Shown: positions 981-60,144, numbered from the stretch's first letter. The stretch: 64,000 nucleotides of DNA from an uncultured Candidatus Saccharibacteria bacterium (GCA_964636285.1 CAZWQF010000004.1:67666-131665); one strand, 5' to 3'. The notes: generated from the letters alone by a model not told the origin. Numbers and translations are program-made.

Positions 981-1090
981 CTGGACGGGTAACGAAAACC
1001 CGCATGGTTAGTGGATATTTATGCAGTTTCTGCATAAATGTGTCCATGTGATTTTCCTGCACCGTTACTGTGTTTTCGTTACCCGTCCAC
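981..1090. repeat. ~110-bp palindromic element between convergent genes
   Basis: TGGACGGGTAACGAAAAC at 982-1000 and its exact reverse complement at 1072-1089 form perfect 17-18-bp terminal inverted repeats. A nested perfect palindrome ATTTATGCAG-ttt-CTGCATAAAT lies at 1038-1060. The same motif family recurs at 4088, 5293, 6669, 59887 and 60126. Confidence 0.7.
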
Positions 1091-1097
1091 ATAAACC

Positions 1098-1664
1098 TTA
1101 CACCCTACAGGAATCATTACTTAAAGACTTCACGCCTAGCCACACCGAATACATAAGCACCACAACAGCTAACACAGACAGCTCCATGCCTTCAAACGGC
1201 AAGGCTACCAAAATGCTGCTACTCAAACCTATTGCAGACAGAGCAGGAACTCCACACGCTGCACAACCCCCAACTACTGCGCCAACAACAGACCCTCCAA
1301 ACGTAAAAGTGGCATGCTTTCCCAGAGCAGACGCTTTTTCCACAAGCAACACTATATTTAAAGCCGTTAACACCCCAGTCACTACCAGAAGCGCAAAACT
1401 CACTGTCTCCATAGATCCACTCAAACCTCTAACAAGCCCAAAAACCAGATTTAATTTCTGCAAAAGAGTCTCTCTGCTACCTGCAAAAGAGTAATAAACA
1501 AGCGAAAAATTCCTCAAAACCGCGGATAAAAGCAGGAATCCTAAAAATACCAATAAAAAGATTGGAACTGCCCTTCTTTTATCCATAGAACAAAAAACCG
1601 CCTTAGCGGATTTTGCCTTGGAATAAGAATTATCAAAAAAGGAACTCATTTGAGGATTATACAA
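1098..1664 (-). CDS. Hypothetical membrane protein with GGCAACG (CxxC) motif in a TM segment
   Basis: 188-aa ORF with signal/TM-like segments and protein-like composition. The overlapping plus-strand ORF 1021..1494 is low-complexity and judged spurious. True start may be the internal Met (MDKRRAVPIFLL). Confidence 0.5.
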   Translation of the reverse strand: MYNPQMSSFFDNSYSKAKSAKAVFCSMDKRRAVPIFLLVFLGFLLLSAVLRNFSLVYYSFAGSRETLLQKLNLVFGLVRGLSGSMETVSFALLVVTGVLTALNIVLLVEKASALGKHATFTFGGSVVGAVVGGCAACGVPALSAIGLSSSILVALPFEGMELSVLAVVVLMYSVWLGVKSLSNDSCRV

Positions 1665-1991
1665 GAGTAGTTGATAATTCGATACCGATTAAGGAACCTA
1701 AAACCAAAAGTAAATTGTCTGGAATTACCTTGGGCGCCCTGGATATAAAAATAAGTCCAGTCCCGAGTGTAACGACTAGCTGAAGCCGTGATCCCCTATA
1801 AACTATTTTGGTTGTCCTCACTCTGTTCCACGGAACAAAAGTATCTGGATTCCCTAGGTTATAAGGTTGAGGAAATCATACAAGGCTTCCATGTCCGACT
1901 ACCTCAGGACGTAACCTTACGGTCATAGATATATTATCAAAATCTAACTGAGAATTCAATGAGTTTTTTAACAAAATATAATAGTAAATTG

Positions 1992-2408
1992 TTACTTACT
2001 TTCTATGGAGTCTTTCTTAACAAAAAATATTGAAAAGGCTACCAAAAACCACCCACTCGCCTGCATCATGATAGGTAAAAGCTTACTAAATAACAGATCC
2101 CCTACGTTAAATTTTCTAGTTGCGGGGTCAACCAGTATAAGTTCCGTAACATTCTCTCTCACATGAGGAATTAAATGCTTTGTATATTCGAATTCAAAAG
2201 TAAGAATCAAAAAACCAAGAGTTAATAAAACATAAAATCTTGAAGGCTTTAAAATGCTTCTGATAAAGCACAAAACAGTAAAAATACCAAAATAAAAAAG
2301 CTCCCAATTATGCGAATAAAAACTGTAAAATGTATTGATCAGATTTATTAAAATTTGCATAACTACCGTGACTTTCTGCAACGAACCCTGCGAAGTGCTT
2401 ATTGCCAC
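1992..2408 (-). CDS. Hypothetical small membrane protein
   Basis: 138-aa ORF with 3-4 hydrophobic helices, directly downstream (same strand) of the M50 protease gene. Confidence 0.4.
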   Translation of the reverse strand: MAISTSQGSLQKVTVVMQILINLINTFYSFYSHNWELFYFGIFTVLCFIRSILKPSRFYVLLTLGFLILTFEFEYTKHLIPHVRENVTELILVDPATRKFNVGDLLFSKLLPIMMQASGWFLVAFSIFFVKKDSIESK

Positions 2409-2414
2409 CCCATA

Positions 2415-3086
2415 TCAAAACAAAAGCTTCATTACAATGTTAACCGGCACCGAAACAAGCCTTTCGGACAATGTGCTTCCCCCTATCGGAACCAAAATTA
2501 CAAAAATCAACATATACATTCCGTATTGAGCAAGCTCAGACCATTGAAGCGCCAAGTCCCTTGGCAAAAGCCCCCAAACAACTTTAAAACCATCCAATGG
2601 GTTTATTGGAATCAAGTTAAAAAACCCAAGCACAAGATTAATTCTTGCGGCTACAAAGAACAATGGAGCCACAATCCCCACAAGTGGACTTCCAAACCCT
2701 ACTCTAAGCACAGCTTCGTGTAAAAAGGCAAAAAGTATTGCAAAAAGGAAGTTACTCACGGGACCTGCCAGAGCAGTCAAAGAAGTATAAAGCCTAGGAT
2801 TGGCAAAGTAATTTGGGTTAAAGGGTACAGGTTTTGCCCACCCGAATCCAGTAAAAGCTAAAAGTGCTGATCCTATTGGATCAAGATGCGCCAAAGGATT
2901 TAAAGTTAGCCTGCCCATAGCTTTTGGTGTTGGATCTCCAAGCCTGTCAGCAATGAAAGCGTGAGCAAATTCGTGCACGGTGAGGCACAGAACTAAAAGC
3001 CCAAAAGTGATTAAAAACATGATTATTCCGGTAATCGGCCCATAAGACGAAAGGAATTCGAATATCATTGCATTAAATAATACCAC
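2415..3086 (-). CDS. Site-2 protease family (peptidase M50) membrane metalloprotease
   Basis: HEFAHA (HExxH) motif inside a TM helix, multi-TM protein, LDG-like downstream motif (NPLDG). Confidence 0.8.
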   Translation of the reverse strand: MVLFNAMIFEFLSSYGPITGIIMFLITFGLLVLCLTVHEFAHAFIADRLGDPTPKAMGRLTLNPLAHLDPIGSALLAFTGFGWAKPVPFNPNYFANPRLYTSLTALAGPVSNFLFAILFAFLHEAVLRVGFGSPLVGIVAPLFFVAARINLVLGFFNLIPINPLDGFKVVWGLLPRDLALQWSELAQYGMYMLIFVILVPIGGSTLSERLVSVPVNIVMKLLF

Positions 3087-3222
3087 ACACCCGTTGCCTT
3101 TTCCCTTTCGTAACCAATGTTTTAGTGGACTGGTTTTTTAATTAGTGCTAGAATCTCAGGGTCACAATTACTTACAATTAAGCCTAAATCCAGTTAAGAT
3201 ATTGTAGGTTTGACTAAAGTTT

Positions 3223-3399
3223 ATGATAGGATTTATTAAAGACTCGTATTACGAGCTTCTCAAGGTAAACTGGCCCACAAAAGACCAGACAGTTCGCTTG
3301 ACGCGATATGTAATAGGTGTTAGTTTAGTCGTCGGCGTCTATGTAGCAATATTGGACGCTGTTTTTAATTTAGGGCTTAAAAACCTTATAATCAAATAA
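3223..3399 (+). CDS. secE: Preprotein translocase subunit SecE (58 aa, absent from the ORF track because it is under 60 aa)
   Basis: Hand translation gives MIGFIKDSYYELLKVNWPTKDQTVRLTRYVIGVSLVVGVYVAILDAVFNLGLKNLIIK. It has the KVxWP motif and one C-terminal TM helix, and sits immediately 5' of nusG in the canonical synteny. Confidence 0.8.
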   Translation: MIGFIKDSYYELLKVNWPTKDQTVRLTRYVIGVSLVVGVYVAILDAVFNLGLKNLIIK

Positions 3400-3401
3400 T
3401 T

Positions 3402-4004
3402 ATGGATGAGCAAAAAAAAGAGCCACAAGTAGAAGCACTTCAGGATAAGGGAGTTTTAATCATATCTGAGGTTGAAAACGAAAAAGCCAGATGGTATGTG
3501 GTTCATACATACTCAGGCCATGAAAACAAAGTTGCTATAGCATTAAAGCAAAGAGTTGAATCTTATGGTTACCAGGACAAAATTTTAAAGGTCCTAGTCC
3601 CCTCTCAAGAAAAAATTGTTATTTCAGAAGGTAAAAAAAGAAAAGTTGACGAGCGAATTTTCCCAGGCTACATTCTTGTAAACATGGAAATGGGAGATGA
3701 TACATGGCATGTTGTCAGATCAACATCAGGAGTTACAGGATTTGTAGGAACTGGCGCAACACCAACAGCCCTTCCAGAAGCCGAGGTTAAATCCATCATG
3801 AAATTCATGAAGATGGAGGCTCCAAAGTTTGAAGCCAAATTCAAAGTTGGAGATTCAGTTAAGATTGTTGATGGACCATTTACAGACTTCCTTGGTAAAG
3901 TTGACGAGGTCAATGACGAACAAGGTAAAGTAAAGGTTCTCATCTCAGTCTTTGGAAGAGAAACCCCAATGGAGCTCGACTTTTTGCAGGTAATCCCACT
4001 TTAA
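3402..4004 (+). CDS. nusG: Transcription termination/antitermination factor NusG
   Basis: NGN domain followed by a C-terminal KOW motif (FKVGDSVKIVDGPFTDFLGKV...). Follows secE. Confidence 0.9.
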   Translation: MDEQKKEPQVEALQDKGVLIISEVENEKARWYVVHTYSGHENKVAIALKQRVESYGYQDKILKVLVPSQEKIVISEGKKRKVDERIFPGYILVNMEMGDDTWHVVRSTSGVTGFVGTGATPTALPEAEVKSIMKFMKMEAPKFEAKFKVGDSVKIVDGPFTDFLGKVDEVNDEQGKVKVLISVFGRETPMELDFLQVIPL

Positions 4005-4087
4005 GCCGGCTCAGGAAACGAGGTCATGCTTCTAGACCTCTCATCCAAACTCTTACAAAGAAAGGGTTCCAAGTATTGATTTTAGTG

Positions 4088-4107
4088 CCCGGGAGACTAA
4101 AACCCGC
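4088..4107 (+). repeat. Single copy of dispersed motif CCCGGGAGACTAAAACCCGC in the rplK leader
   Basis: Exact 20-mer shared with 5293-5312 and 59887-59906; lies 25 nt upstream of rplK start. Confidence 0.7.
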
Positions 4108-4131
4108 GCTACTAAAGGAAATTTTAAGTAT

Positions 4132-4560
4132 ATGGCAGCAAAGAAATTAAAAGCACTAGTTAAACTAAACATACAAGCAGGTAAGGCTACCCCAGCACCT
4201 CCAGTAGGACCAGCACTTGGTCAGCACGGAGTTCCTTTGATGGAATTCTGTAAGGAGTTCAACGCAAGGACCTCAAAGATGGGAGACGATATTGTTCCTA
4301 TTATTATTTCGGTTTATGATGACAGATCTTTCACTTTCATCACCAAAACCCCACCTGCATCTTCCCTACTTGTTAAGGCAGCAGGTATTCCAAAAGGTTC
4401 AGGCAAACCAAATAAAGAAAAAGTAGGAGTAGTCACAAAAGCACAGGTTTCTGAGATTGCTGAGAGAAAAATGAAGGATTTAAATGCAAGGACCATTGAA
4501 GCTGCAATGAAAATAGTAGAAGGAACAGCAAGATCAATGGGAATTACTGTAAAGGAATAA
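4132..4560 (+). CDS. rplK: 50S ribosomal protein L11
   Basis: Conserved N-terminus [34 protein letters not shown]; 142 aa. Confidence 0.95.
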
Positions 4561-4561
4561 T

Positions 4562-5278
4562 ATGGCAAAAGAAACAAAAAAAGCTAAAAAGGGCGATGAG
4601 CTAAAGTCAAAAAAACACCAAATTGCTTCCAAAGTTGTGGATGCAGAAAAGGTGTACACACTTGATGAAGCACTAGACCTTGTTAAAAAATCATCTTACA
4701 CAAAGTTTGATGGTACTGTTGAGCTCCATATCAATCTTGATATAGACATCAAAAAGCCAGATCAAACTCTCAGAACCACAACTTCTCTTCCACACGGAAC
4801 AGGTAAAACTCTTAAGGTTGCAGCCTTCTCCGCTGTTGAGGTAAAAGGCGCAGATCTTTCTTTAAACGAAGAAGGAATCGCCCAAATCGAACAGAACAAA
4901 ATTAAGCCTGGAATCGACTTTGAGGCAGTTTGCGCTGACCCTTCGTTCATGCCAAAACTCACAAAGATTGCAAGAATTCTTGGTCCTAGAGGAATGATGC
5001 CAAATCCAAAGACAGGCACCGTTTCTACAGATCTTGTTAAAGTTGTAGCTGAGCTTAAAAAAGGCAAGGTTGAGCTTAGAAACGAAGCCAACGCACCTAT
5101 CATCCACACAAAGATTGGAAAAGTAAGCTTTTCAAAGGAAGCTTTGGTTGAAAACTACAACGAAATCTTCAAGACTTTAAGAGCTAACAGGCCACAAAAA
5201 GCAGGAACAGGCTGGATCAAGTCAGCATTCATTGCTTCAACAATGGGCCCATCCATTCAGGTGGCTATTGAAGCCTAA
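4562..5278 (+). CDS. rplA: 50S ribosomal protein L1
   Basis: 238 aa, L1 signatures (TLRTTTSLPHGTGK), translationally coupled to rplK. Confidence 0.95.
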   Translation: MAKETKKAKKGDELKSKKHQIASKVVDAEKVYTLDEALDLVKKSSYTKFDGTVELHINLDIDIKKPDQTLRTTTSLPHGTGKTLKVAAFSAVEVKGADLSLNEEGIAQIEQNKIKPGIDFEAVCADPSFMPKLTKIARILGPRGMMPNPKTGTVSTDLVKVVAELKKGKVELRNEANAPIIHTKIGKVSFSKEALVENYNEIFKTLRANRPQKAGTGWIKSAFIASTMGPSIQVAIEA

Positions 5279-5290
5279 CCCCCGTTATTC

Positions 5291-5456
5291 TGCCCGGGAG
5301 ACTAAAACCCGCATTGTTAAAGGAAAATCCCGAGGGTAAAACCTCGGGATTTTTGGTAGTTGTTTGTTCATACCTCTACCTTAACTGAAGCAAAGCTATG
5401 AACAGTGCGTTTTATTCTCCCGGGCAGTTTATTTGACAAAACCCCACCCCTCTAAT
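5291..5456. repeat. Inverted-pair element of the dispersed motif, flanking an intrinsic terminator (rplA 3' end / rplJ leader)
   Basis: CTGCCCGGGAGACTAAAAC at 5291-5309, and its near reverse complement GTTTTATTCTCCCGGGCAG at 5437-5456. Confidence 0.6.
5326..5356 (+). terminator. Rho-independent terminator after rplA
   Basis: TCCCGAGG-gtaaaa-CCTCGGGA stem followed by TTTTT. Confidence 0.75.
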
Positions 5457-5658
5457 ACAATCGTGAAGTTCCTAAGATAGTAAGGTGTCAAAACATAAAG
5501 TTTTGAATTAAATAGTTTAAAGGATTGGCCTACTGAGGAAACAATAGCTTAAGACACTAGTCCACGATAAATCAAGGGCATGTGTAACGCGCAAAAACGG
5601 GTTCCTATTCGTTTTTCATATTCTCCCCTATTGTTATTCTCACAAAGCTTAAAAATAG

Positions 5659-6186
5659 ATGCCAAACAAGAAAAATATCAAAGACGTATCAATGCTTAAA
5701 GAGAAAGTTGCAAAAGCAAAGTCTTTTTACTTTGTTGACTACAAAGGTCTTAAGTCAGTTGATGCTGATAACCTTAGAGCCAAACTTTCCGAAGAAGGCG
5801 CAGAAGTTGAAGTTGCCAAAAACACTTTAATGGAAGTAGCCATGAGAGAGCATGGAATTGACACTACAGTGGCCAAGGAAAATCTTAAAGGCTCAATGAT
5901 GACCATCTTTGCATATAACGATGCAGTCTCCCCTCTTAAAAAGCTTTACGAGTTTGCAAAGACCGTAAACATCCCAACAATGAAGCTTGGATTTGTAGAT
6001 GGAAGATTCTACTCCGCAACCGAAGTAGAAACGCTCAGCAAACTCCCATCAAGAAACGAGCTTATTGCAAGAGTTCTTGCAGGATTTAACACACCTATTT
6101 CAGGCTTTGTTAATGTCCTTTCTGGAACAAAGAAAAATCTAGTATATGCATTAAAGGCTGTTGCGGATAAGAAACAGGCTAACTAA
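5659..6186 (+). CDS. rplJ: 50S ribosomal protein L10
   Basis: 175 aa, L10 family composition; preceded by a ~370-nt leader. Confidence 0.9.
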   Translation: MPNKKNIKDVSMLKEKVAKAKSFYFVDYKGLKSVDADNLRAKLSEEGAEVEVAKNTLMEVAMREHGIDTTVAKENLKGSMMTIFAYNDAVSPLKKLYEFAKTVNIPTMKLGFVDGRFYSATEVETLSKLPSRNELIARVLAGFNTPISGFVNVLSGTKKNLVYALKAVADKKQAN

Positions 6187-6265
6187 CGTTTGGCTGGGAA
6201 CGGCCGAGCATAAGCTTGGTCTCATTCTTAATCGCAGTAGTAAATTTTAGAAGGAGGTGTCAAAA

Positions 6266-6655
6266 ATGGCAGATTTATCAACAAACGCAACAAAAGTAAT
6301 GGAGCTTGTAGAGGGCATGACAGTCCTTGAGCTTAACGACTTAGTAAAGGCTCTTGAAGAAAAGTTCGGAGTCTCAGCTTCAGCACCAGTAATGATGGCA
6401 GCTGCACCAGCAGCAGGACCAGCAGAACCAGTTGAAGAGAAAACACAGTTTGATGTGGTTCTTGAAAACGCAGGAGCAAACAAGATCAACGTAATTAAGG
6501 CTGTAAGAGAAATCAACCAGGCACTTGGACTTGTAGAAGCCAAGAACCTAGTAGAAGCAGCACCAAAGGCTGTTCTTGAAGGAGCAAAGAAAGAAGCAGC
6601 AGAGATTGCAAAGAAGAAGCTTGAGGAAGCAGGCGCAAAAGTCACCCTTAAGTAA
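6266..6655 (+). CDS. rplL: 50S ribosomal protein L7/L12
   Basis: Ala-rich hinge then conserved C-terminal domain ([25 protein letters not shown]). AAGGAGG sits 8 nt upstream of the ATG at 6266. The ORF-track start at 6257 (GTG) overlaps the RBS and is rejected. Confidence 0.95.
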
Positions 6656-6668
6656 TTCTAATTTCTGT

Positions 6669-6690
6669 GGACGGGTAACAAAAACCCGCA
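6669..6690 (+). repeat. Single copy of motif variant GGACGGGTAACAAAAACCCGCA immediately after the rplL stop
   Basis: Same variant as 983-1004; followed by ACTGTTAAAG as in copy 5293. Confidence 0.7.
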
Positions 6691-6717
6691 CTGTTAAAGC
6701 AAAGTTACGATCAAAGA

Positions 6718-6747
6718 AAAACCCCGTCGAAAGGCGGGGTTTTTGGT
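6718..6747 (+). terminator. Rho-independent terminator after rplL
   Basis: AAAAACCCCGTC-gaaag-GCGGGG followed by TTTTT. Confidence 0.7.
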
Positions 6748-7528
6748 ATTTGAATTCAGAGCAAGAATCTTATATACCTTAATAGTGAAGTTTTACAGTT
6801 TATTCCATGATGTTGAAGTGGATAATAGCAAGCTAATCCTTGAGAAGCATGGGGCAGATATTGGAAATCTAATGTTGCTGTTAAATTTATTTTTAGACAG
6901 AATTAATTTACTAAATGGGAAAATAAAAAGCGATGAATACCCATCCTCAACAATCCTAGACATCGCAATTCAAAATATACAACTTTGTGGCAACGCCATG
7001 ATTTTATTCACTCAAGGATATCTTAGAACCACATACATTCTAAATCGAGTTATTGCCGAACAAACTATCCTATCAATGTTTTTTGATGAATTCCCTGATA
7101 AGGAGAGAGAATATGCAACTTTAAACTATAGAGATTTCTTTCGTGACCAGAAGATGGAGGAAATTGTTAAAAGAATTGATAAAGTAGGAGTCAAATATAA
7201 GAGGGGCGAAGGAAAACAATGGTATAAAAGTTTATTTGTGCCCCTCTATAAAGAGCATTCACGCTCAGTGCATTTAGATCTTGATTTTCTGTCTAATATT
7301 CAATGGGATGAAAATATGCAAATCTCCCGCATTACACCCATGTTCCCTAATGAAAAAGCAACACTGGCAACTATGCTTATACTATATCAGTTAACTCTAA
7401 CTGCACTTAACGCATTTGAAACCCATTTCAACAAAGCCTTGCCAGAATTTACAGCTGAGCAGGAAGAAATTTTTCCTCGAGTTATAGAAATAGTAAATAA
7501 ATTAAACCTCAAGCTGAAGTCTAGCTAA
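6743..7528 (+). CDS. Hypothetical protein occupying the position where rpoB would normally follow rplL (start uncertain)
   Basis: 261-aa ORF, but its 5' end overlaps the rplL terminator, so the true start is probably an internal Met (~6870). No recognisable motif. Confidence 0.45.
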   Translation: MVFEFRARILYTLIVKFYSLFHDVEVDNSKLILEKHGADIGNLMLLLNLFLDRINLLNGKIKSDEYPSSTILDIAIQNIQLCGNAMILFTQGYLRTTYILNRVIAEQTILSMFFDEFPDKEREYATLNYRDFFRDQKMEEIVKRIDKVGVKYKRGEGKQWYKSLFVPLYKEHSRSVHLDLDFLSNIQWDENMQISRITPMFPNEKATLATMLILYQLTLTALNAFETHFNKALPEFTAEQEEIFPRVIEIVNKLNLKLKSS

Positions 7529-8621: not shown

Positions 8622-8623
8622 AT

Positions 8624-26346: not shown

Positions 26347-26387
26347 TATATTTTTGCGCCGTTGCGCTAAAATTTGGTGATACATTG

Positions 26388-51700: not shown

Positions 51701-52224
51701 TTGAGAAGGAATATAAAGATTTGCCGGTTGTTAACGCCTCTATTGCTTTATATAAGGACGACGATGGCAAAGAGAAAGACCAGGAATTTAAAGATAGACA
51801 GGATAGGGTTTTGGATCACGAATACCCATACATTGTGAGCGAACTTTCAACTGAAGGATTCACAATTATCTTGGGCAAAGAGGCAAAGGAATCAATCAAC
51901 TTTAGCTGGGTGGCATTTGCGGTTAAAGACGCAGTAACAGCAGGCGAAGAAAAAAAGGTCAAAGATCAGGTTGAGAGGCTCTTAAATCCAGACTTTGTGA
52001 AGAAGGCACAGGAGAATGAAGACAAAGAGAATAAAGATGAAAATAAAAACGAAGTAAAAGAAGAAAAGAAAGAGGAGCCTGTAAAAGATGAGCTCAAAAA
52101 TGAGAATTCAGATTCTGGTTCTTCAAGCTCTGTGTTAGGAGCAAGCACAAACTCAAATTTTGTGGAGACTTTGTTTAACACCGGATTATCCGGCGGGAAA
52201 GAAAGCTCAAGTTCGGCAAGGTAA
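45766..52224 (+). CDS. Giant (2152 aa) secreted/anchored surface protein, paralog of the 16-kb gene, with LamG/concanavalin-like lectin domain
   Basis: Short cytoplasmic N-terminus plus TM (FYTILASVSLFFLIATTFIAF), no HTH. Shares the NLNANTLVNIG...DTSDWDISLTGDLT module with the 16-kb gene. LamG-like region ~48980-49460 (MSFNGTNQYA...NQWHHLVAVNTDTGICLYIDGKL). ALSGRVPVKVS module ~50260-50620, then coiled-coil and a K/E-rich tail. Confidence 0.85.
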   Translation: MSRTKPIYRLPLPSLITNTRALAEKHIKGLGSFYTILASVSLFFLIATTFIAFNTSLLRSANAATGINRQISFQGKVVNINGTNVTNGNYNFVFRIYTVDTGGSPIWTETRTGGNQLTVTDGIFRASLGSVTSLPGSIDFNTDNIYLSVEFNTTDGTNEMSPRIRFSAVPYAINAEKVSGLTVTNTTGTLTIPNSKTLSIADDFSTSGAFGLTLTTTASTNVTLPTTGTLSTLAGTEILTNKSIGSTGLVFSGATTDITTATDEDFTVTVNGTGDYIINTDADTQFRLAGLANCDSIDTDASGNLACGTDAGASSSPFNTAVGVIDKATLGDRLRLRYGDVADTQLEIENTFLGSAPTADAMVIDLTGGASGIVTNGVDALSISAEFGNGTSSTNSGLNIIITPVGSPTGDETFYGLNIATLTGTSATETAVNIGAGWDTGINLNANTLVNIGDSGTDFTPTGGLTLAGALQINNTINATGTATFDGTLDANGIFTLGDGAEIGTIDTSDWDISLTGDLTGISFDANGTGNSITNIESADILDGTIAPTDLNLTTSDSPNDEDCLTFENSTTDFEWQTCQVSWNNLTAPSDNLSLSMASNTTTFTWGNATGASDMFTLTDTTNNTGTGAVFSVSTASGSTATPFEVSAQGNPAITVSSRANVGIKNINPQEALEVGNDTTRANMKIYGDILKDGYIDSTGLANVTDVFIYDTTRDSDGGAWTNGTIAQGLSWYTETKDNTSTACSITTDDRCGRSEFPKKALIISTPSAAYIFDARDNTMWMKFNQNSAGYAIGVDTNNNPTGVFALNGTVYIGMNGSAASGLYAINFTNDTLLNYDSVDRTQGDKNIANRNSAVSYATNANTAFSITDNIVNDVHGAVIFGSTTAGSPLNGGTFIAAATDSGTAVINLTAGRVIRYAGTTITNDINQVWLTRRGRLYQTNEALLQVERFNDIEADTANQTSADDIYDEQSANVPHLAKTAPTISTSPGALFVLERASVVDDQGDVLYVGHSLGLSELHLGNTVSATAVGWAKYYTIDGSYQYLSGNIRGAFAMNGASGDITDLSMRNNVLDVKNSPTYGVAGVRGKAMSFNGTNQYACSDTNNDGTCDLDADFSPAAVSFHIEAWFKHSTAISGTDVLIDHTYTTAPAYAGGYRIFMNASGQMVFGIDDDATAWGDDDVVTSTQTYNDNQWHHLVAVNTDTGICLYIDGKLAVACDTSLLATATLTIANVVLGVGADCSVGANCSTGANFWTGEIDDVNISMGGSTTSDSLTQAQVRKKYLEGRAALSRPLVQVTDATTASSTTIGDSAETWIPNQLSGSVVEITQGTGVGQTRRVVSNTATTLTVTPAFTTTPDTTSDFEIVPEQLYGATNTVTSIAVQDTDVLGYGKTLMVGTNNGSDGGGVTIFGGQGHAYITDVYHADAGKTDDNAATYSGTDYDDITAVAAKSGVRVVGNLAGFWTETDNKEYEANIDRIMNEITNMKQELLVDGITGTSTETGLMGGADLAEYYYSTELLEAGEVVAIDKTLNAGVKRSSTAYQTDVIGIVATYPGIILGTKTDNSFPIALSGRVPVKVSIENGIILAGDRLTASSVPGHAMRTDTAGRVIGVAIEDMSLDSLSACVDNNGQPITNSQGEVKKCGTITAFVNLSDYNKNSDDTLLSSWYQQQAATELYTKLYESESANQESTESATIQSCIDNNCTDNALARQRTKVKEILSILKNASEAGEKEGTMSALTKLPELLAKKITASQEIITPLLSSLVVNSEEVNSVKIKSDYLEAGSLKTDSIQANNKDIKINVAEDGKVILFGTDSNGKPKDIITFDQYGNASFNGDITAGTITADKIKANQIEGMEIVTDKLSSISKELSVLSKQSSESAFINPEDPEGTLIKGIKIGALEAQTAKVIDITALGKMFVKKSLTVDGPATFKANTFFEKLAVFINKVIFKNEVIFEQVPTFNSDTAGFAIIKEGDDRVRIKFEKEYKDLPVVNASIALYKDDDGKEKDQEFKDRQDRVLDHEYPYIVSELSTEGFTIILGKEAKESINFSWVAFAVKDAVTAGEEKKVKDQVERLLNPDFVKKAQENEDKENKDENKNEVKEEKKEEPVKDELKNENSDSGSSSSVLGASTNSNFVETLFNTGLSGGKESSSSAR

Positions 52225-52263
52225 AACTTAATATGCCCTGAAAAGGGCTCCAAAATTTAATCT

Positions 52264-52300: not shown

Positions 52301-52559
52301 AAAAAATGTACAGACTTGGGAGTTTTGAAGTGTAAGGTTAAAAATTAAATTTGATATAAGTAAATTCCGCGGGTGCAAGTCAAAGTGTTTTAAACGCAAA
52401 ACAGCCCGGCCTCCACACTCATCATTCGTAACTTTCGTCACAAAATCAAAGTTTTGGATTCCGGGCTGTCACTAGCACCTAGGCTAGATTTTTGTCATTT
52501 TTACTCAGTCACTTGGGCGGAAGTGTGAGCTCGGATGACTTCCGATTTAGAGCAAGAGA

Positions 52560-53081
52560 TCAGGCGCGGGCGGATGTACGCATGGTACGATTCCGCTTGT
52601 TGACCGACTTCTTGCTTTTGCCGCCGCCCATCTGTGGACCACCCTGACCCCCGGTGCCCTTGGCTTTCTGGCACGCGGCGGCGCGGTTCTGCTGGCGGGC
52701 CTTGCGAGCGGCCTCTTTCTGGTTCCGAACACGATTCGCCTCGGCTTTATCCTGTTGCGAAGCGCCCTGCGTAGCGTATTGGACAAACGCCTTGGTGGCA
52801 AGTTCAACAGCGGTCTTGCGGTTGACGGCGGCGTTGCGATAGCCGATCCACTCTTCATTGGCAGCCTCTCGCGCCGCGTGGTAGCTAGCACAGGACTTGT
52901 CGCAGAAGCGGTGAACCACCTCATGAGAACCCTCTTGGACGGGGGGGAAAGACCACCCAGACAAGGAGGTACGCATGAGCACCGCAGGCGCAGCGCCCGA
53001 TCGGCTCGGGCTCCAGTTCCTTGATCGTAACCTTGCTCAAGCTCGACAAAGAAACTTCCGATGCAAAGTAGTGGGACATGA
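52560..53081 (-). pseudogene. Island ORF a: possibly frameshifted gene (basic, Gly-rich C-terminal tail) split at a G7/C7 homopolymer
   Basis: A 52-aa ORF with SD AAGGAGG (start ~53081, MSHYFASEV...) ends just upstream of the 140-aa frame 52560..52982 (…KTAVELATKAFVQYAT…KSKKSVNKRNRTMRTSARA). The frames change at the run GGGGGGG 52938-52944. Either a true pseudogene or a sequencing error. Confidence 0.35.
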
Positions 53082-53328
53082 CTGCCTCCTTGCCTTTTTA
53101 GGGCATGAAAAAAGAACGAAAATTGAGCCACTTCTAACAACTTCTTTGTTATAACAAAGCCGTCAAAAGCGGCCCAACTTCTCTTTTTGGGAGGACTGCC
53201 CTCCCCCATTCGGTTAATAGTATTGTTGAGATTTGAAAAGCGAATAGATACAAAAAAGGGGCGTCTGCCAGCGAATGCTACGGCATCTTTATTAGAAAAT
53301 TAAAACTAAATTGAAAACGCCTCCGAGT

Positions 53329-53484
53329 TGGGATGATACCAAGTTCGGAGGCGCCTATGAATGCAGTCCCTGATTTTATACCGGTTCGGGCTTGCTTGCC
53401 TTTCTCGCTAATACATAAAGGCAAACGAATTATTCCGGCAACCACGCCCGCGTTGTGCGAAGGTGGCTAATGAAGGGAAGGCAG
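53329..53484. repeat. Island intergenic repeat R2, copy a (hairpin plus conserved ~130-nt body)
   Basis: Hairpin GCCTCCGA-(loop)-TCGGAGGC. The body is shared with 55453-55622 through the conserved blocks TACCGGTTCGGG, AATTCCGGCAACCACG, GCGAAG-TGG-TAATGA and AGGCAG. Confidence 0.55.
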
Positions 53485-53876
53485 TCTATTTTTGCACAAC
53501 CCTTTTAACATGCATCAAATTTCTAATGTTGACCCGCTTACTGCGATAATCTGCAGAAAGCCCCGTTGTAGTTAGGTCTCATCTACGCCTGATGCAGGCG
53601 AGGCAGCTAGCAAGTTCCTAAGAACCTGTTTTGCCGGAGTACTCGACACCAGTTGACGATCAAACTGTCAACTAGTCGTTGTTCCACCCACTCATCCCCT
53701 TAACCGCGCCCTTTTCTCTGCGGGATAAATCATTACGGGGATTGCGGAAGCTCTCTGGACCCTTTCCATCTAGGAACCCAGTGCAGAAAGTGAGCTTCAT
53801 TCATTAAGCCCAGAACGTACCTGGACAGGATTTACTGATCGATGGGTTGATCAGCTGCACATCCTTTTTTCCAAGG

Positions 53877-54197
53877 CTATTTCGGAGTCGACGGCAACGG
53901 CAGGTAAAGCAGAAGGTATCCGCTAACCATACCAAAGTCGTACGTCAGAACCGAAAAGCGAGTGACCACCTCAGTTGCAGCCATGACCATGTCAGCTTGC
54001 AGAATCTGCATGCGCATGGGAACTTCAAGCTGCTTCTTGGTGGGCTTAATCGCAAGGACGTAAACATCCTTACTCGCTTTGCACCAAGCAAAGCGACCAC
54101 CAAGCCTCTCACGCAGCACCCTGGCATCCTCAAACTGCTTTCCAGGCTTTTTGTGCGTGAACTCGAGCTTGCCGATCTTGAAATCCTTGGGAGGCAT
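53877..54197 (-). CDS. Island ORF b: hypothetical 106-aa protein
   Basis: SD AAGGGGGT 7 nt upstream of ATG; protein-like composition. Confidence 0.5.
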   Translation of the reverse strand: MPPKDFKIGKLEFTHKKPGKQFEDARVLRERLGGRFAWCKASKDVYVLAIKPTKKQLEVPMRMQILQADMVMAATEVVTRFSVLTYDFGMVSGYLLLYLPLPSTPK

Positions 54198-54198
54198 G

Positions 54199-54405
54199 TT
54201 AATACCCCCTTCTGGATAAGAGCGAGCTCAAGAACAGGAGCCCCGCCCAAAACAACGCCACGGTGATACAAGCAAGAGGTACCGCTACCTCAAAGCTCAT
54301 ACCGTGACGGCTTGACGACAACATGGAGGCTGAAAAGACAACCACATTCACCGCCAAGACCAACATCGACGCCTTGACACGATCTTTCCAACTGTTTTTT
54401 CCCAT
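54199..54405 (-). CDS. Island ORF c: 68-aa two-TM membrane peptide (holin-like topology)
   Basis: Two hydrophobic helices and a charged C-terminus. SD AAAGGAAGG upstream. Ends 1 nt before ORF b. Confidence 0.4.
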   Translation of the reverse strand: MGKNSWKDRVKASMLVLAVNVVVFSASMLSSSRHGMSFEVAVPLACITVALFWAGLLFLSSLLSRRGY

Positions 54406-54849
54406 GGTAGGGAAACCTTCCTTTCGGAATACTCATAAACGCTGTTGGAAAGCGTTTCTGAGAGGTTTATCGGATTGAAGTACTTTGATAAACCCAAATA
54501 GAACAACTCGATTCTATTTGTTATCCTATTTTGATTTACCAAGTAGCTCTCAACTTTAGCCTGCTTTCGTCTTGCCTTTCGGAAGACTCATCAGTACCTC
54601 TTTGAGGTAAAGCAGGACAAGACACGCGTTCGATTTAAGATTTTAGAACATAGTGTACTAAAATCCCCTGCTTGGAGGTTTTGGCTATATCTCATGAACC
54701 AGCTTGCTTCCGCATCGGGTTTCTCTCCTCTGCAACAGGCTGCACGCTTCCTTCTCTAATTGCTTAGAGCTAGTACGCTATGACCTGCGCTTCAACGGGC
54801 GAGTGTCCCTACGGAGTTTTTAACTTAGGGCTAGCCATGAGATGCGATT

Positions 54850-55158
54850 TTAGGCGATTCGAGTTACAACTTTGGCCTTGAGCTGACTCACGTCAGAGAC
54901 CGCGGTGTGTACTGTCCATCCATTCTCACGCTTGTTCTGCGCAAGAGGAACGGCCAGGTAACTTTCGCCAATCTGCAGACCACCAAAAAGCTTGGAAGTC
55001 GCAGGCACTGCACCTAAAGCCTCAACGAGGCTCTTGGTATCCGGGTGTCCCACGTAATGCGGGGTGCCGGACAAGTCTTGCGGAAAGGCTACTTCTTTAC
55101 ATTCAAAAGTGCCTCCCGTAAGAACAGTGCTGGATAGAATCGCAACATACTTAGCCAT
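54850..55158 (-). CDS. Island ORF d: hypothetical 102-aa protein
   Basis: SD GGAGGTG 6 nt upstream of the ATG. Sequence MAKYVAILSSTVLTGGTFECKEV... Confidence 0.5.
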   Translation of the reverse strand: MAKYVAILSSTVLTGGTFECKEVAFPQDLSGTPHYVGHPDTKSLVEALGAVPATSKLFGGLQIGESYLAVPLAQNKRENGWTVHTAVSDVSQLKAKVVTRIA

Positions 55159-55384
55159 TTTTCACCTCCGTGTGGGCTGGCTAGCCCATGAAAATCCCCT
55201 ACCCGCTGGCTTTCGTTTTGGGTTACGCCTCTTTAATTACTTGAGGGAAAAACCTGCTAAAAATTCTATTACAGACTTTTCCCCCAAGTAATTATTGAGA
55301 ATATATCGAACTGCGTATCTTGCCACATAGGTTAATCTTTATTAATTTGTTGAAGATAACCTACAGAGAGAGTTGCTAAATTAG

Positions 55385-55448
55385 CTTCTTCCCTCGTTTA
55401 GCTAAAGAAACACCTACCAAGCCTTCTTTAGCTAAATGAAGAAAGAGT
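55385..55448. repeat. Island repeat R1, copy a (hairpin-containing ~64-bp direct repeat)
   Basis: ~94% identical to 56036-56099. Internal hairpin TAGCTAAAGAA-(14 nt)-TTCTTTAGCTA. Confidence 0.7.
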
Positions 55449-55452
55449 TTGT

Positions 55453-55622
55453 TTAAGCGCCCCTCAGGTTATACCACTATTGGGGCGCTTAAGGATGAAC
55501 TCGTTCTATACCCTAGTTTTACACCGGTTCGGGTCATCTATGCCAGCAAATGATGATCGAACAATAAATTCCGGCAACCACGTTCGCCTAAGCGAAGATG
55601 GGTTAGTGATGCGCTAGGCAGG
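55453..55622. repeat. Island repeat R2, copy b
   Basis: 11-bp-stem hairpin TTAAGCGCCCC-(loop)-GGGGCGCTTAA, then a body homologous to 53353-53484. Confidence 0.55.
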
Positions 55623-55952
55623 AATCAAATCCCCCCAACTCCAGCTAGAAAAGTCGGGACCATACTCCCACACCACATTCTCAAGCTGGAATTCCCACTC
55701 TCCTTGGAGCCGCCAAGCATGGATGTGCTCACATAGAATGTCGGCGGGCTCATCGTCCTCGTGCACCTCGCTCGGAAGGTGGGCAGTGCATGGCCATTTG
55801 GACGTCCCAGGATCCACAGGCTCAATCATGAACCAGTTGGCCTCTCCAAACACTGCTCTAAAAGACCTGCGCTCCAGCGTCCCCTCACAGTACACGCCTC
55901 GCGATATTTGGGTATCGTAAGGTTCCCACATTGAGATATAAACCTGAAGCAT
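55614..55952 (-). CDS. Island ORF e: hypothetical 112-aa acidic protein
   Basis: SD AAAGGAG ~8 nt upstream of the ATG. Trp/Glu-rich (…EHIHAWRLQGEWEFQLENVVWEYGPDFSSWSW). Confidence 0.5.
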   Translation of the reverse strand: MLQVYISMWEPYDTQISRGVYCEGTLERRSFRAVFGEANWFMIEPVDPGTSKWPCTAHLPSEVHEDDEPADILCEHIHAWRLQGEWEFQLENVVWEYGPDFSSWSWGDLIPA

Positions 55953-56035
55953 TTAGCACTACTCCTTTCTTGGAGTTACAACCGTTATCCCGTGCTTGGA
56001 TAATGGAGGTTAGTTAGAGAAAAGAACTCTGGAAA

Positions 56036-56099
56036 CTTCTTCCCTCGTTCAGTTAAAGAAACACCTACCAAGCTTTCTTTAGCTAAATGAAGAAAGAGT
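56036..56099. repeat. Island repeat R1, copy b
   Basis: Direct repeat of 55385-55448, upstream of ORF e and adjacent to the right island border. Confidence 0.7.
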
Positions 56100-56375
56100 G
56101 TGCACGCCCGGCCTGACTTATATCCAATTCACGAAATTTTATTTACTAGAGTAAAACCAAAAAAGCCGAGGCTTTTGAGAAACCACTTTCTCCAAAATCT
56201 CGGCCTTTCCAAACTTAGAATATCACCTAGGTAATAGTTTGAGAGGTAGGTTTTGGTAGGTTTCACCTATAATCTCTTACATGACAATTATATCCTATAG
56301 TATATAATAGGTCAACAGTGACCGCTTTGAACAAGTAGTCTTACATTCAATTTTTAAAACTTGTAGTATTAGGAC

Positions 56376-59093: not shown

Positions 59094-59150
59094 AAAAATA
59101 ACTGCAGTCTCTTGAACTTTACCCACCCAAACCCTATCATTAAGTAGTCT

Positions 59151-59882
59151 ATGCAAAACTCAATGAACCCCAAACTTAAAAGGGTTCTGACGTCTCTTGG
59201 CGTTGTCCTCTTAATAGCGCTTGCCGCGGCCCCTGCTTACTACTTTTACCAAAAGTACCAAAGGGCTCAGTCACTTGTTCGAGATCCTGAAATGGCTTTA
59301 AGAGAAGAAAAAGCCGACCTTTTAAAAACTGTTTCAAAGCTAATCCAACTACCAGCATCAGAAGAACCTACTATTGCAACCGTATCCGATGTTGAAAAAA
59401 TTAAGGATCAGCCCTTTTTTGCAAAGTCTCAGAACGGCGACAAAGTAATAATTTATGCTCAAGATAAAAAGGCGTACCTCTATAGACCTTCGGAAAAAAG
59501 ACTTGTTGATGTGGCTCCAATAAATTTAGGAACACAGGAGGTTGCAGGTGCAAACACAACGCAGGAGAACATAACTTTAAGATTAGCTTTGTTTAATGGC
59601 ACTCAGATTAACGGCCTGACAAAACAAGTAGACATAAAACTTTTAAAGAATGTATCCTTAAGTTACGAAGTAGTGACGCGAAAAAACGCAGTTAAGACCA
59701 ACTACGCAAAGACCCTTGTGATAGATCTTAGTACTGATGAAAGTGGAAAAGGTAAGTTTGCAGATCAAGCAAAAGAAATTGCAAATGCACTTGGAGGAGA
59801 GGTACTAGCACTCCCACAAGAAGAAGCAAAACCAGAAGGAGCCGATATTTTAATTATTGCAGGCCCTAACCTTCAAGACTAA
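59151..59882 (+). CDS. Membrane-anchored LytR_C (LytR/CpsA/Psr C-terminal)-like domain protein
   Basis: N-terminal TM, then a C-terminal ~90 aa with LRLALFNGTQINGLTKQV...TNYAKTLVIDLSTDESGK...ADILIIAGPNLQ, resembling the LytR_C fold pattern. Confidence 0.55.
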   Translation: MQNSMNPKLKRVLTSLGVVLLIALAAAPAYYFYQKYQRAQSLVRDPEMALREEKADLLKTVSKLIQLPASEEPTIATVSDVEKIKDQPFFAKSQNGDKVIIYAQDKKAYLYRPSEKRLVDVAPINLGTQEVAGANTTQENITLRLALFNGTQINGLTKQVDIKLLKNVSLSYEVVTRKNAVKTNYAKTLVIDLSTDESGKGKFADQAKEIANALGGEVLALPQEEAKPEGADILIIAGPNLQD

Positions 59883-59886
59883 TCTG

Positions 59887-60144
59887 CCCGGGAGACTAAA
59901 ACCCGCATTCCATAAGCATTTGTAGTGTTAAGCTTTTAAAACACAGTGAAAATCATGCGCTAACGCCAAACCAACCTTACTAACTTTAAGCCCAATTCAT
60001 TAAAGCTAAATCAAAGTAAAAACCTGGTACTAGAAAAGTCACCCAAAACTATCCCATAGAACAAATTTTTAGCAATAAATAAACTACCCTATATTATTTT
60101 CACTATCAATTTATCCAATGATAATGCGGGTTTTAGTCTCCCGG
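59887..60144. repeat. Inverted-pair element of the dispersed motif (~260 bp)
   Basis: CCCGGGAGACTAAAACCCGCATT at 59887-59909, right after the stop of the LytR_C gene, and its reverse complement at 60123-60144 (AATGCGGGTTTTAGTCTCCCGG). Confidence 0.7.

Follow-up and report, generated by a model that had tools for sequence, protein, structure and literature searches.

A probable MITE- or REP/BIME-like family of small palindromic interspersed repeats in a Patescibacteria genome

REPs of E. coli near stop codons reportedly affect translation termination and mRNA stability, as Liang, Rudd and Deutscher are said to have found in 2015. BOX, RUP and SPRITE repeats show enrichment at the 3' ends of genes and in the DNA that separates convergent genes (PMC3049150). 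One dispersed repeat that is located near the 3' ends of coding sequences, and is strongly enriched between convergent genes, has no known parent IS and is thought to have been co-opted as a terminator (PMC3049150). Hairpins of MITEs are RNase III substrates or terminators (PMC10969869). Tn3-derived TIMEs have 5-bp AT-rich target duplications such as AAATA/AATAT, and inverted ends can, as in TIME-COMP, mobilise arbitrary DNA between them (PMC4133298). Sites for ribosomal protein L1 are found before rplK or rplA in different phyla and are 37-41 nt long; the leader site has a 6-12-bp stem and an internal bulge with a G-A pair and an unpaired A (PMC3616713). For Patescibacteria/CPR there is hardly any description of small interspersed repeats, and a literature search, judged by title and abstract, found no paper on a MITE- or REP-type repeat family in CPR.

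The window analyzed here is a 64-kb (64,000-nt) stretch of DNA from a Patescibacteria (CPR) bacterium. It contains eight repeat units at five intergenic sites (Table 1), with the consensus TG[CC/GA]CGGG[AGACT/TAACR]AAAACCCGC; shuffled sequence is expected to contain 0.00 matches. An earlier note on this DNA had reported dispersed copies of a 20-22-nt motif, and these are real, being exact or near-exact. The sequence CCCGGGAGACTAAAACCCGC is present without mismatch at 4088, 5293 and 59887 on the plus strand, with one mismatch at 60126 on the minus strand, and with three mismatches, in effect a 2-nt deletion, at 5405 on the minus strand. The sequence GGACGGGTAACRAAAACCCGC is present without mismatch at 983 and 6669 (plus strand) and with three mismatches at 1068 (minus strand). 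Three identical 22-mers are found among the copies. Similarity continues about 15-20 nt 3' of the 20-mer (GCAYNGTTRAWGG), and the basic module is a repeat unit of about 35-40 nt with a variable 5' half and a conserved 3' half (AAAACCCGCAYNGTTRAWGG). The 5' half is built on a CCGGG/CGGG core, as TGCCCGGGAGACT, TGGACGGGTAACR and GTCCGGGACTCT here and as GGCCGGGCGTKAT in relatives; across the window and relatives, units start with TGCC, TGGA, GGCC or GTCC. The unit carries an imperfect dyad, TGC-CGGG...CCCG-GCA, and the asymmetric spacer and 3' tail are conserved as much as the dyad.

An nhmmer profile of the unit recovers the eight known units and nothing else in 64 kb, with none in coding DNA; all eight lie in the intergenic DNA that makes up 9.9% of the window. 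Units occur solo, in tandem, or as inverted pairs with 11 to 213 nt between them, and the solo units are mostly in sense orientation. A GC-rich island at 52.4-56.1 kb is bracketed by imperfect inverted repeats containing GGCCGGGC. These flanking sequences were rejected as family members: a profile from relatives gives them E values of 0.38 and 2.5, which are not significant.

Table 1. Repeat units, inverted pairs and the rplA terminator in the window. Unit subtypes are given by their sequence; a dot in the strand column marks the pairs.
Feature	Position	Strand	Remarks
Pair 1	981..1091	.	110-nt imperfect palindrome, between convergent genes
Unit, subtype TGGACGGGTAACG	982..1020	+	left arm of pair 1; 2 nt past Nramp TAA; profile E 6e-9
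Degenerate unit, subtype TGGACGGGTAACG	1054..1089	-	right arm of pair 1; profile E 7e-5
Solo unit, subtype TGCCCGGGAGACT	4086..4125	+	between nusG and rplK
Pair 2	5290..5432	.	143 nt, bounded by inverted arms
Unit, subtype TGCCCGGGAGACT	5291..5330	+	left arm of pair 2; 12 nt past rplA TAA; profile E 4e-11
Intrinsic terminator hairpin of rplA	5323..5354	+	13-bp stem and T-run; inside pair 2
Degenerate unit TGCCCGGGAGAATAAAAC--GCACTGTT	5393..5431	-	right arm of pair 2; profile E 4e-6
Solo unit, subtype TGGACGGGTAACA	6668..6707	+	12 nt past rplL TAA
Pair 3	59883..60151	.	269 nt; 27-nt arms 93% complementary
Unit, subtype TGCCCGGGAGACT	59885..59922	+	left arm of pair 3; 2 nt past LytR_C TAA
Unit GTCCGGGAGACTAAAACCCGCATTATCATTGGA	60112..60151	-	right arm of pair 3; profile E 7e-9

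The placement of the units right after stop codons is non-random. The gaps from stop codon to unit start are 2 nt at Nramp, 8 nt at the minus-strand ORF 1098-1664, 12 nt at both rplA and rplL, and 2 nt at LytR_C. With uniform placement within each site's own gap, the probability that at least four of five sites lie that close to a stop codon is P = 3.5e-4. Within the window this bears out the enrichment that the earlier note had proposed to test. The 4088 copy lies farther from a stop: it begins 81 nt behind that of nusG, and the ATG of rplK is 24 nt away from it. The unit of the 983 copy does start 2 nt past the stop of the transporter gene that the note named, and this gene can be refined to the C-terminal part of an Nramp gene. 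The 60126 copy on the minus strand is present too, but no minus-strand gene precedes it; the unit to which it belongs lies upstream of a MerR-HTH gene on the plus strand that starts at 60300, about 150 nt away. At the unit between nusG and rplK, the 3' flank AAAGGA precedes the rplK ATG at 4132, and TTTTAGT upstream of the unit is complementary to ACTAAAA within it. Five of the six sites known in this genome, including one outside the window, lie within about 7 kb around secE-nusG-rplKAJL.

Three of the five window sites are inverted pairs, with arms of 18-27 nt that are 83-100% identical. All three pair loci of the earlier note stand, although the second spans 5290-5432 and not 5291-5456. When folded, as that note had suggested, the paired versions give very stable predicted hairpins of -51 to -70 kcal/mol. 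Pair 1, with the central hairpin ATTTATGCAG/CTGCATAAAT, folds at -51.5 kcal/mol (z -8.3); the first 18 nt of its right arm equal the left arm, and the CCCG half is missing. Pair 2 folds at -69.6 kcal/mol (z -10.1), and its right arm directly adjoins the rplJ promoter, TTGACA-17-TACAAT (5433-5461). In pair 3 the arms are separated by 213 nt of unrelated AT-rich DNA. The interiors between arms (11, 65, 95 and 213 nt) are unrelated past about 15-20 nt beside the core, so the pairs do not represent a single MITE that was copied together with its interior. The elements are 54-269 nt in size and non-coding.

The left unit of pair 2 is followed by ATTGTTAAAG and then the rplA terminator, and the unit after rplL by ACTGTTAAAG and then the rplL terminator (about 6716-6745). 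These two copies have a common module, consisting of the unit, AYTGTTAAAG, the terminator and TTTTTGGTAKTTG. They are the only 2 of the 10 units known in this genome that are joined to a hairpin and T-run, and the repeated core itself is no terminator. The CGGG/CCCG stem of single units is 4-5 bp long and by itself of no unusual stability, folding at -4.4 and -7.7 kcal/mol (z -0.7 and -2.5). Palindromes of 7-10 bp centered on CCGGG are present in a few copies (4086, 60126 on the minus strand, and the unit TTTAGAGTCCGGGACTCTAAA of contig L046). The mini-stem had been claimed for each copy. Most copies do have it, but the reverse arms at 1068 and 5405 are without the CCCG half. A functional RNA hairpin formed by this mini-stem was rejected: the six base pairs tested for covariation yielded no compensatory change, 81.7% of alignment cells are paired versus 83.1% in shuffles, and the stem is broken in 3 of 12 copies.

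Contig L046 overlaps the window with 100% identity over 6655 nt and carries a further site 0.5 kb upstream of the window and 39 nt upstream of the Nramp start. This site consists of two tandem units of different subtypes, is not behind any stop codon, and lies in a divergent promoter region that holds antisense and tandem copies. With it, this one genome has 10 units, distributed over 6 sites, in 69.5 kb of sequence. Neither a transposase, nor a RAYT, nor a longer element with unit-type ends was found in these 69.5 kb by Pfam, NCBIfam and PHROGs scans of the window proteins and the Pfam labels of the L046 genes; no window protein matches DDE_Tnp_Tn3 or a resolvase. A TfoX_N gene is located 3 kb upstream of the window.

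Comparison of orthologous loci, which the earlier note had called for, reveals presence/absence differences between relatives. In L004 a 59-nt palindromic copy is located exactly at the rplK|rplA junction. The sequence there reads ...GAATAATATGGCA in the window and in L030 versus GAATAA[GGCCGGG...59 nt...AAAATAA]TATGGCA in L004, where the insert is flanked by a 5-bp duplication, AATAA. As the junction is uninterrupted in the window and the insert has this duplication, the two represent a filled and an empty site. The insert is an imperfect palindrome in which 16 of 21 arm positions pair as counted by eye, and its MFE fold was also computed. In comparisons at genus level or deeper, L004 has a copy at this junction and the window, L030, L033 and L006 have none; at the 3' end of LytR_C, the window and L043 carry a unit that L044/L045 lack. 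Duplications in the window are less regular. The flanks of pair 2 are TTATT (left) and (T)TTATT (right), offset by 1 nt, those of pair 1 are the imperfect ATAACC/ATAAACC, and pair 3 has no clear target duplication. A homologue search with ORF 1098-1664, intended to find an empty pair 1 site, returned only that protein itself.

Among the relatives nearest in L1 or LytR_C identity, the repeat is present in L004 (75%), L033 (65%) and L043 and absent at the same junctions in L030, L031/32, L005-9, L041, L042 and L044/45; five of eight relative lineages are without a unit at matching junctions. Each of the two repeat-carrying relatives with a short rplKA contig has 2-3 copies on it, and both Logan contigs of repeat-carrying relatives break off in or at a unit, which fits a multi-copy repeat. 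Within one genome the copies are nearly identical, with a 5' half specific to each genome and a 3' half common across genomes. A profile from the L004 and L033 copies alone finds the window copies with E values of 0.003-0.35. At the rplL site, the tail and terminator can be aligned with L006, which is without the 22-nt core. Scans for the exact pattern gave only isolated matches in high-GC unrelated contigs (3 in GTDB genomes, 20 in JGI metagenomes, and 7, then 0, in IMG/VR); the family is not in the GTDB, JGI metagenome and IMG/VR sets scanned.

These comparisons show that units have been copied into new places; one was inserted where two genes abut, with duplication of 5 bp of AT-rich sequence. 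The repeat is multi-copy, homogeneous within a genome and different between genomes. We consider it probable that these are small palindromic interspersed repeats of a lineage-specific, MITE- or REP/BIME-like family in a Patescibacteria genome. Among the three candidates of the earlier note, a non-autonomous mobile element preferring gene 3' ends is the best supported, by the filled and empty site at the L004 insertion, the presence/absence differences, the within-genome identity and the extra tandem site. The repeat is not a textbook MITE, however, since interiors are unrelated, solo units are common, a target duplication is clear at only one or two sites, and the 69.5 kb yielded no parent transposase. 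The observed pattern, patchy and without covariation, differs from the perfect synteny in all relatives with covariation that the note had named as speaking against mobility. The same two observations weigh against its second candidate, a 3'-UTR RNA element, but the LytR_C copy is syntenic and conserved in L043, so some copies may have a co-opted RNA role. Its third candidate, a tie to ribosomal-protein leaders, is weak, given the copies behind Nramp and LytR_C, the antisense copies and the absence of the published L1-site architecture.

A transposase or recombinase encoded elsewhere would recognize the unit as an end and move it in trans, probably with a target preference for AT-rich DNA containing (A)ATAA/TAA. 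In a 90%-coding genome, selection would retain mostly insertions right 3' of stops or between cistrons. The units would be co-transcribed with the upstream gene, and paired units would form long 3'-UTR or intercistronic hairpins. Such hairpins might stop 3' exonucleases or be RNase III substrates, and might act as or carry intrinsic terminators after rplA, after rplL and between convergent genes. A few copies appear to have been co-opted, as SD context for rplK and as the conserved copy after LytR_C; the non-random stop-codon placement and the conserved LytR_C copy suggest that some may serve as 3'-end hairpins, terminator modules or SD context. The clustering near secE-nusG-rplKAJL and the comparable junctions in relatives could reflect function instead of hopping.

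Function is central to an alternative that we regard as unlikely, in which the unit is a domesticated cis-acting RNA module, a sense-strand 3'-UTR or intercistronic element recognized by a lineage-specific trans factor, protein or RNA, with which its variable 5' half co-evolves. The module would punctuate the secE-nusG, rplKA and rplJL units and a few other genes. There it would govern termination, the stability of 3' ends, processing, or how translation is coupled at the stop codon, and it would have been spread by duplication and kept by selection. The non-random stop-codon adjacency (P 3.5e-4) is consistent with this, as is the unit abutting the TAA of rplK, rplL and LytR_C in relatives. 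So are the junctions that L033 and the window have in comparable form: before rplK, where the L033a unit, counterpart of the 4086 unit, directly precedes the gene and AAAGGA is the SD; between rplL and the terminator; and upstream of rplJ in antisense orientation. The LytR_C copy is identical to its L043 ortholog at 33 of 42 positions (79%) beside intergenic DNA that cannot be aligned, two copies have the same unit-and-terminator module, and the 3' half is constant across genomes with the 5' half changing genome by genome. However, there is no covariation, the stem is broken in three copies, and Rfam over 900-6900 gives no family match at any unit at the gathering score or at E<=10. Antisense and tandem copies are found in the divergent promoter region upstream of Nramp, the unit is missing at the same junctions in five of eight relative lineages, and there is a fresh insertion between rplK and rplA in L004. 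A 35-nt sequence-conserved unit without a structural signal suits a protein or transposase site equally well. An rrn boxA-like reading of the tail's reverse complement (CTTTAACAATG) was discarded, since the strand is wrong and the sequence not conserved.

A broader version is less likely still. The unit would be a clade-specific gene-end punctuation element of CPR, not merely selfish: a sense-strand RNA or non-template DNA signal at the stop codon, read by a co-evolving trans factor that sets termination, 3'-end processing or translational coupling, concentrated on secE-nusG-rplKAJL, with copy-and-paste or gene conversion renewing it genome by genome.

We think it very improbable that the unit is a DNA-level recognition site, such as a dimeric-regulator operator, a DNA-uptake signal or an att/dif-like recombination site. 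The imperfect dyad suits such a site, DNA-uptake sequences of other bacteria are often inverted pairs in terminators, a TfoX_N gene is nearby, and the GGCCGGGC-containing repeats bracket the GC-rich island. But the unit is much longer and rarer than uptake signals and absent from coding DNA, its asymmetric spacer and 3' tail are conserved like the dyad, and the island-flank matches are not significant. Integron attC was rejected, the core sites RYYYAAC/GTTRRRY not being present.

One subtype has GGGAG...GAC, which presumably recalls the L1 site of 23S rRNA. That the unit mimics a ribosomal-protein binding site, for example the L1 autoregulatory site in the rplKA leader, with the other copies as decoys, is the least probable reading: three copies lie directly before rplK (window 4086, L033a) or rplA (L004a), but mimicry fails because the published bulged-stem architecture (PMC3616713) is not formed in predicted folds, and GGGAG is missing from other subtypes, copies are also behind Nramp, LytR_C and rplL and antisense, and L030, L031, L006 and L041 have no unit ahead of rplK or rplA.

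A MITE/REP-like family would be of a common kind, and only the host would be unusual for it. CPR genomes are tiny and about 90% coding, so a repeat that tolerates or exploits places right behind stops and at the junctions of adjoining ribosomal-protein genes is informative. It would indicate that mobile DNA persists in streamlined episymbiont genomes, and it marks break points in MAG assemblies. Its insertions are natural material on operon punctuation and 3'-end formation in organisms without genetics. If co-option is true (the rplK SD context, the terminator modules, the LytR_C copy), these copies would be an example of regulatory exaptation in CPR; otherwise the family is an ordinary MITE/REP-type one.

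Among known systems, the L1-binding rplKA leader resembles the unit in small size and in position immediately ahead of rplK or rplA, but differs in its bulged stem, in the copies at unrelated genes and in antisense here, and in that most relatives have no unit there. IS200/IS605-type ends were rejected, having direct subterminal hairpins versus inverted arms here. The unit's inner portion (GAAAAC...GCAYGGTTAAAG) bears a loose resemblance to the inner Tn3 IR, GAAAAC..ACGTTAAG; Tn3-family ends, however, are 38 bp and start with GGGG, whereas the unit is about 32-35 nt without terminal GGGG, and no Tn3-type transposase or resolvase is among the window proteins. The 5-bp AT-rich duplications of Tn3-derived TIMEs can be compared with AATAA at the L004 insertion and, approximately, with TTATT at pair 2. 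The terminator-like dispersed repeat (PMC3049150) differs in that most units here are not joined to a hairpin and T-run and the core is no terminator.

The REP/BIME/REPIN elements mobilized by RAYTs are, like these, short extragenic units with a GC-rich palindromic core, single or in inverted pairs, often within about 15 nt of stop codons and without obligatory target duplication. Here, unlike there, the unit's own stem is weak in most copies (4-5 bp, -4 to -8 kcal/mol), and there is no conserved GTAG/GTGG head, no fixed pair spacing and no RAYT gene in 69.5 kb. Compared with the long-hairpin MITEs (Correia/NEMIS of Neisseria, ERIC of enterobacteria, RUP and BOX of S. pneumoniae), these repeats have interiors that are unrelated to one another, a conserved module of only about 35-40 nt, frequent solo and tandem units, just one clear target duplication (5-bp AATAA), no sequence similarity to those families and a CPR/Patescibacteria host. 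A homologous interior from a parent IS is lacking, and the window and L046 have no IS or transposase. The likenesses are that the elements are small, non-coding and intergenic with inverted terminal arms, presumably form stable co-transcribed hairpins, favor the 3' ends of genes and the space between convergent ones, and are clustered, with insertion polymorphism between lineages. With BOX they share modularity, variable internal content and lone modules. With MITEs in general they share terminal inverted repeats, small size, multiple copies, and presence or absence at orthologous sites.

The repeat units of the window are most simply accounted for as small palindromic interspersed repeats that make up one MITE/REP-like family. 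They are non-random and multi-copy: both 20-21-mer motifs of the earlier note are present at its positions, dinucleotide-preserving shuffles give a chance expectation of 0.00 matches, and a profile built from the window copies detects exactly eight units in 64 kb and no others. The left edge of the unit is a TG 2 bases 5' of the motif as first described, and similarity extends about 15-20 nt 3' of the motif (GCAYNGTTRAWGG), giving a unit length of about 35-40 nt. All eight units are intergenic, compared with an intergenic share of 9.9% for the window. Of the CGGG...CCCG mini-stem attributed to every copy, the CCCG half has been lost from two minus-strand arms, those at 1068 and 5405. The window encodes secE-nusG-rplK-rplA-rplJ-rplL, glycogen metabolism, MreB, a sortase and several giant ORFs, and its closest named L1 homologues are from Patescibacteria.

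Repeat units, inverted pairs and neighboring features of the window
Feature	Position	Strand	Details
CCCGGGAGACTAAAACCCGC	4088, 5293, 59887	+	exact
CCCGGGAGACTAAAACCCGC copy	60126	-	1 mismatch
CCCGGGAGACTAAAACCCGC copy	5405	-	3 mismatches
GGACGGGTAACRAAAACCCGC	983, 6669	+	exact
GGACGGGTAACRAAAACCCGC copy	1068	-	3 mismatches
Pair 1	981-1091		fold -51.5 kcal/mol, z -8.3
Pair 2	5290-5432		fold -69.6 kcal/mol, z -10.1; rplA terminator 5323-5354 inside
Pair 3	59883-60151		arms 27 nt, 93% complementary
ORF	1098-1664	-	188 aa
Spacer hairpin	~4024-4044		GAGGTC-N9-GACCTC, in 4005-4085 of the nusG-rplK spacer
rplJ promoter	5433-5461		TTGACA-17-TACAAT (11/12, near-consensus)
rplJ leader	within 5433-5658, 3' of the promoter		GTTCCWAAGAWAGTAWGGT...GGCCTACYGAGGAA
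Giant ORF	10165-26418	-	5417 aa, internal 300-nt repeats
Giant ORF	45766-52224	+	2152 aa, Laminin_G_3 domain
Giant ORF	60300-64000	+	at least 1233 aa, N-terminal MerR HTH, runs off window
GC-rich island	52,400-56,120		~3.7 kb, GC 0.45-0.63 (~0.40 elsewhere)
Island ORFs (examples)	52547-53209, 53877-54197, 54850-55158, 55614-55952	-	5-6 small orphan ORFs in all
Island inverted repeats	52404-52427 / 56089-56112		imperfect, with GGCCGGGC, 75% complementary
Hammerhead-like motif	54559-54617	-	type III, spans Rfam model 1-54
67-nt direct repeats	55385-55451, 56036-56102		94% identical, each a hairpin, flank ORF 55614-55952
Other hairpins	55229-55299, 55368-55465

Sense-strand units start 2 nt (Nramp), 8 nt (ORF 1098-1664), 12 nt (rplA), 12 nt (rplL) and 2 nt (LytR_C) 3' of a TAA. 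At least four of five units would lie that close to a stop with P = 3.5e-4 under uniform placement within their own intergenic gaps; the adjacency to stop codons is therefore real. It does not extend to the copy at 4088, which sits between nusG and rplK, 81 nt from the stop of the first and 24 nt from the start of the second, or to the minus-strand arm at 60126, which no minus-strand gene precedes, the plus-strand MerR-HTH gene starting at 60300. The "transporter gene" is more exactly an Nramp gene, of which the window has the C-terminal part. Searched against 5.8 billion proteins, ORF 1098-1664 matches itself alone, and it falls into no family. It is thus an ORFan or a spurious gene, and in the second case no stop codon precedes the right arm of pair 1.

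The Nramp gene is 468 aa long in L046, a Logan contig of the same genome (run SRR12762304) whose 6655-nt overlap with the window (positions 1-6655) is 100% identical, with 0 mismatches, and which, as reverse complement, reaches 5.5 kb upstream of position 1. It adds a site in the divergent intergenic region 39 nt 5' of the Nramp start, where two minus-strand units, TGGACGGGTAACAAAAACCCGCATGGTTGGGG and AGTCCGGGACTCTAAAACC, stand in tandem, the second within a 10+10 palindrome (TTTAGAGTCCGGGACTCTAAA) and of the subtype found in the related contig L043. One genome thus holds 10 units at six sites in 69.5 kb, with at least three subtypes, and the family is not limited to stop codons. Past the tandem units come small ORFs, some of them for TfoX_N and PIN-domain proteins, and, at the end of L046, the 3' half of a tRNA; the other end of the contig is the rplL stop codon, 12 nt short of the 6668 unit.

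Among related lineages, eight compared over the rplKA region (L1 identity 64-75%) and three over that of LytR_C, the distribution of units is patchy. Contig L004 (L1 75%) has GGCCGGGCGTTATAAACCCGCACGGTTGATGGA directly 3' of the rplK TAA and an antisense unit 3 nt 5' of the nusG ATG. Contig L033 (L1 65%) has three units of subtype GGCCGGGCGTG: one immediately 5' of rplK, whose AAAGGA is the SD, an antisense one 25 nt ahead of rplJ, and one directly 3' of the rplL TAA, which is interrupted by a ~40-nt hairpin and followed by a terminator. In L043 (LytR_C 76%), GTCCGGGACTCTAAAACCCACAATCTAAAGCATTT lies 3 nt past the LytR_C TAA and is identical to the window copy at 33/42 positions, the DNA beyond being unalignable. 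The compared junctions of L030, L031/32, L005-9, L041, L042 and L044/45 hold no units; L045 and L004 come from the same sample. A profile from the L004 and L033 copies alone recovers the window copies (E 0.003-0.35). On this evidence the units are one family, with a conserved 3' half and a genome-specific 5' half, homogeneous within genomes and divergent between them. The L004 and L033 contigs both break off within or at a unit, the outcome to be expected of a repeat that is multi-copy there. Exact-pattern scans of GTDB representative genomes, JGI contigs and IMG/VR returned only chance matches in high-GC organisms, and the species is absent from those collections.

Presence and absence at orthologous loci, a check proposed earlier, is seen between rplK and rplA. 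The window sequence there is AAGGAATAATATGGCA, with a TAATATG junction that L030 shares; in L004, AAGGAATAA is followed by GGCCGGG...59 nt...CAAAATAA and then by TATGGCA. L004 carries a filled site, and the window and L030 the empty one, with a 5-bp AT-rich duplication (AATAA). The insert is an imperfect palindrome in which 16/21 arm positions pair (counted by eye; an MFE fold was also computed). The flanks of pair 2 are TTATT and (T)TTATT and those of pair 1 ATAACC and ATAAACC; around pair 3 there is no convincing duplication. After rplL, the tail and terminator (ACTGTTAA...AAGAAAAACCCCG...GCGGGGTTTTTGG) can be aligned between the window and L006, which is without the 22-nt core; the window lineage could have gained the core, or L006 could have lost it.

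The three readings of the earlier note were a mobile element, a 3'-UTR RNA and a ribosomal-protein leader site. With caveats, the first is best supported, by the filled and empty sites and the patchy distribution. A co-opted sense-strand "gene-end" RNA function we think improbable, but several observations leave room for it: five of the six sites of this genome fall within ~7 kb around the ribosomal-protein cluster, the short rplKA contigs of L004 and L033 bear 2-3 units each, in part at comparable junctions, conservation of the LytR_C copy extends across lineages, and the DNA inside the pairs differs from pair to pair. All of these are also explicable by local hopping, repeat clustering, which is a described behavior (PMC10969869), selection on tolerated sites, or gene conversion. 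Rfam gives no matches to the units at the gathering score or E≤10. Over 12 aligned units there is no compensatory change in the CGGG/CCCG stem or the outer 2-bp helix, the stem is broken in three, and paired cells (81.7%) do not exceed shuffles (83.1%); folded in isolation, the stem is not unusually stable. Conservation is therefore at the level of sequence, which suits an end recognized by a protein (transposase or recombinase) no less than it suits an RNA. That the unit mimics an L1-binding site is unlikely, because it does not form the published bulged-stem architecture (PMC3616713), other subtypes lack GGGAG, and copies are also present beside unrelated genes and in antisense orientation.

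The spacer between nusG and rplK measures 127 nt in the window and 26-68 nt in relatives, and its hairpin might be a candidate for the true L1 regulatory site. The rplJ promoter and the L10-type leader behind it are conserved among relatives. The leader recurs 5' of rplJ in L006, L030, L031 and L033; it is probably the L10(L12)4 autoregulatory leader, and is unmatched by Rfam L10_leader even at E≤10. The 5417-aa gene separates glycogen-metabolism genes that are contiguous in L005/L006. The GC-rich island is possibly foreign or mobile DNA; its ORFs have no matches in Pfam, PHROGs or NCBIfam. One side of its bracketing repeats, AAGTCAGGCCGGGCGTG, is identical to the L033 unit at 17/18 positions, and neither repeat is significant against the unit profile (E 0.38 and 2.5). 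In the hammerhead-like motif within it the CUGAUGAG...CGAAA core is intact and is joined by three stems and a UU context at the cleavage site; the motif is sub-threshold (24.5 bits against a gathering score of 48.5; E 0.004 when 301 nt are searched, 0.06 for 4.5 kb).

As a mobile family, the units would be mobilized by an enzyme that acts in trans and whose gene lies elsewhere, with a preference for (A)ATAA/TAA-rich targets, and selection in a 90%-coding genome would leave mostly insertions just 3' of stops or between cistrons. Co-transcribed hairpins may then stabilize 3' ends, terminate transcription or serve as RNase III substrates, in line with what is described of Correia, ERIC, BOX, RUP and SPRITE (PMC10969869, PMC3049150). 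Our literature search found no such family described for the phylum Patescibacteria; what is new is the presence there of a small palindromic interspersed repeat family of a known kind. All three inverted pairs of the earlier note stand, the second now bounded at 5290-5432 instead of 5291-5456, and pairs 1 and 2 fold stably, as it had suggested examining. The DNA enclosed by the arms is unrelated between pairs, so that they resemble two units bracketing local DNA, in the style of a BIME or TIME-COMP, more than copies of one MITE. The 5-bp AT-rich duplication is also the signature of Tn3-derived TIMEs (PMC4133298), but the unit does not have their defining 38-bp GGGG...TAAG and is not assigned to them.
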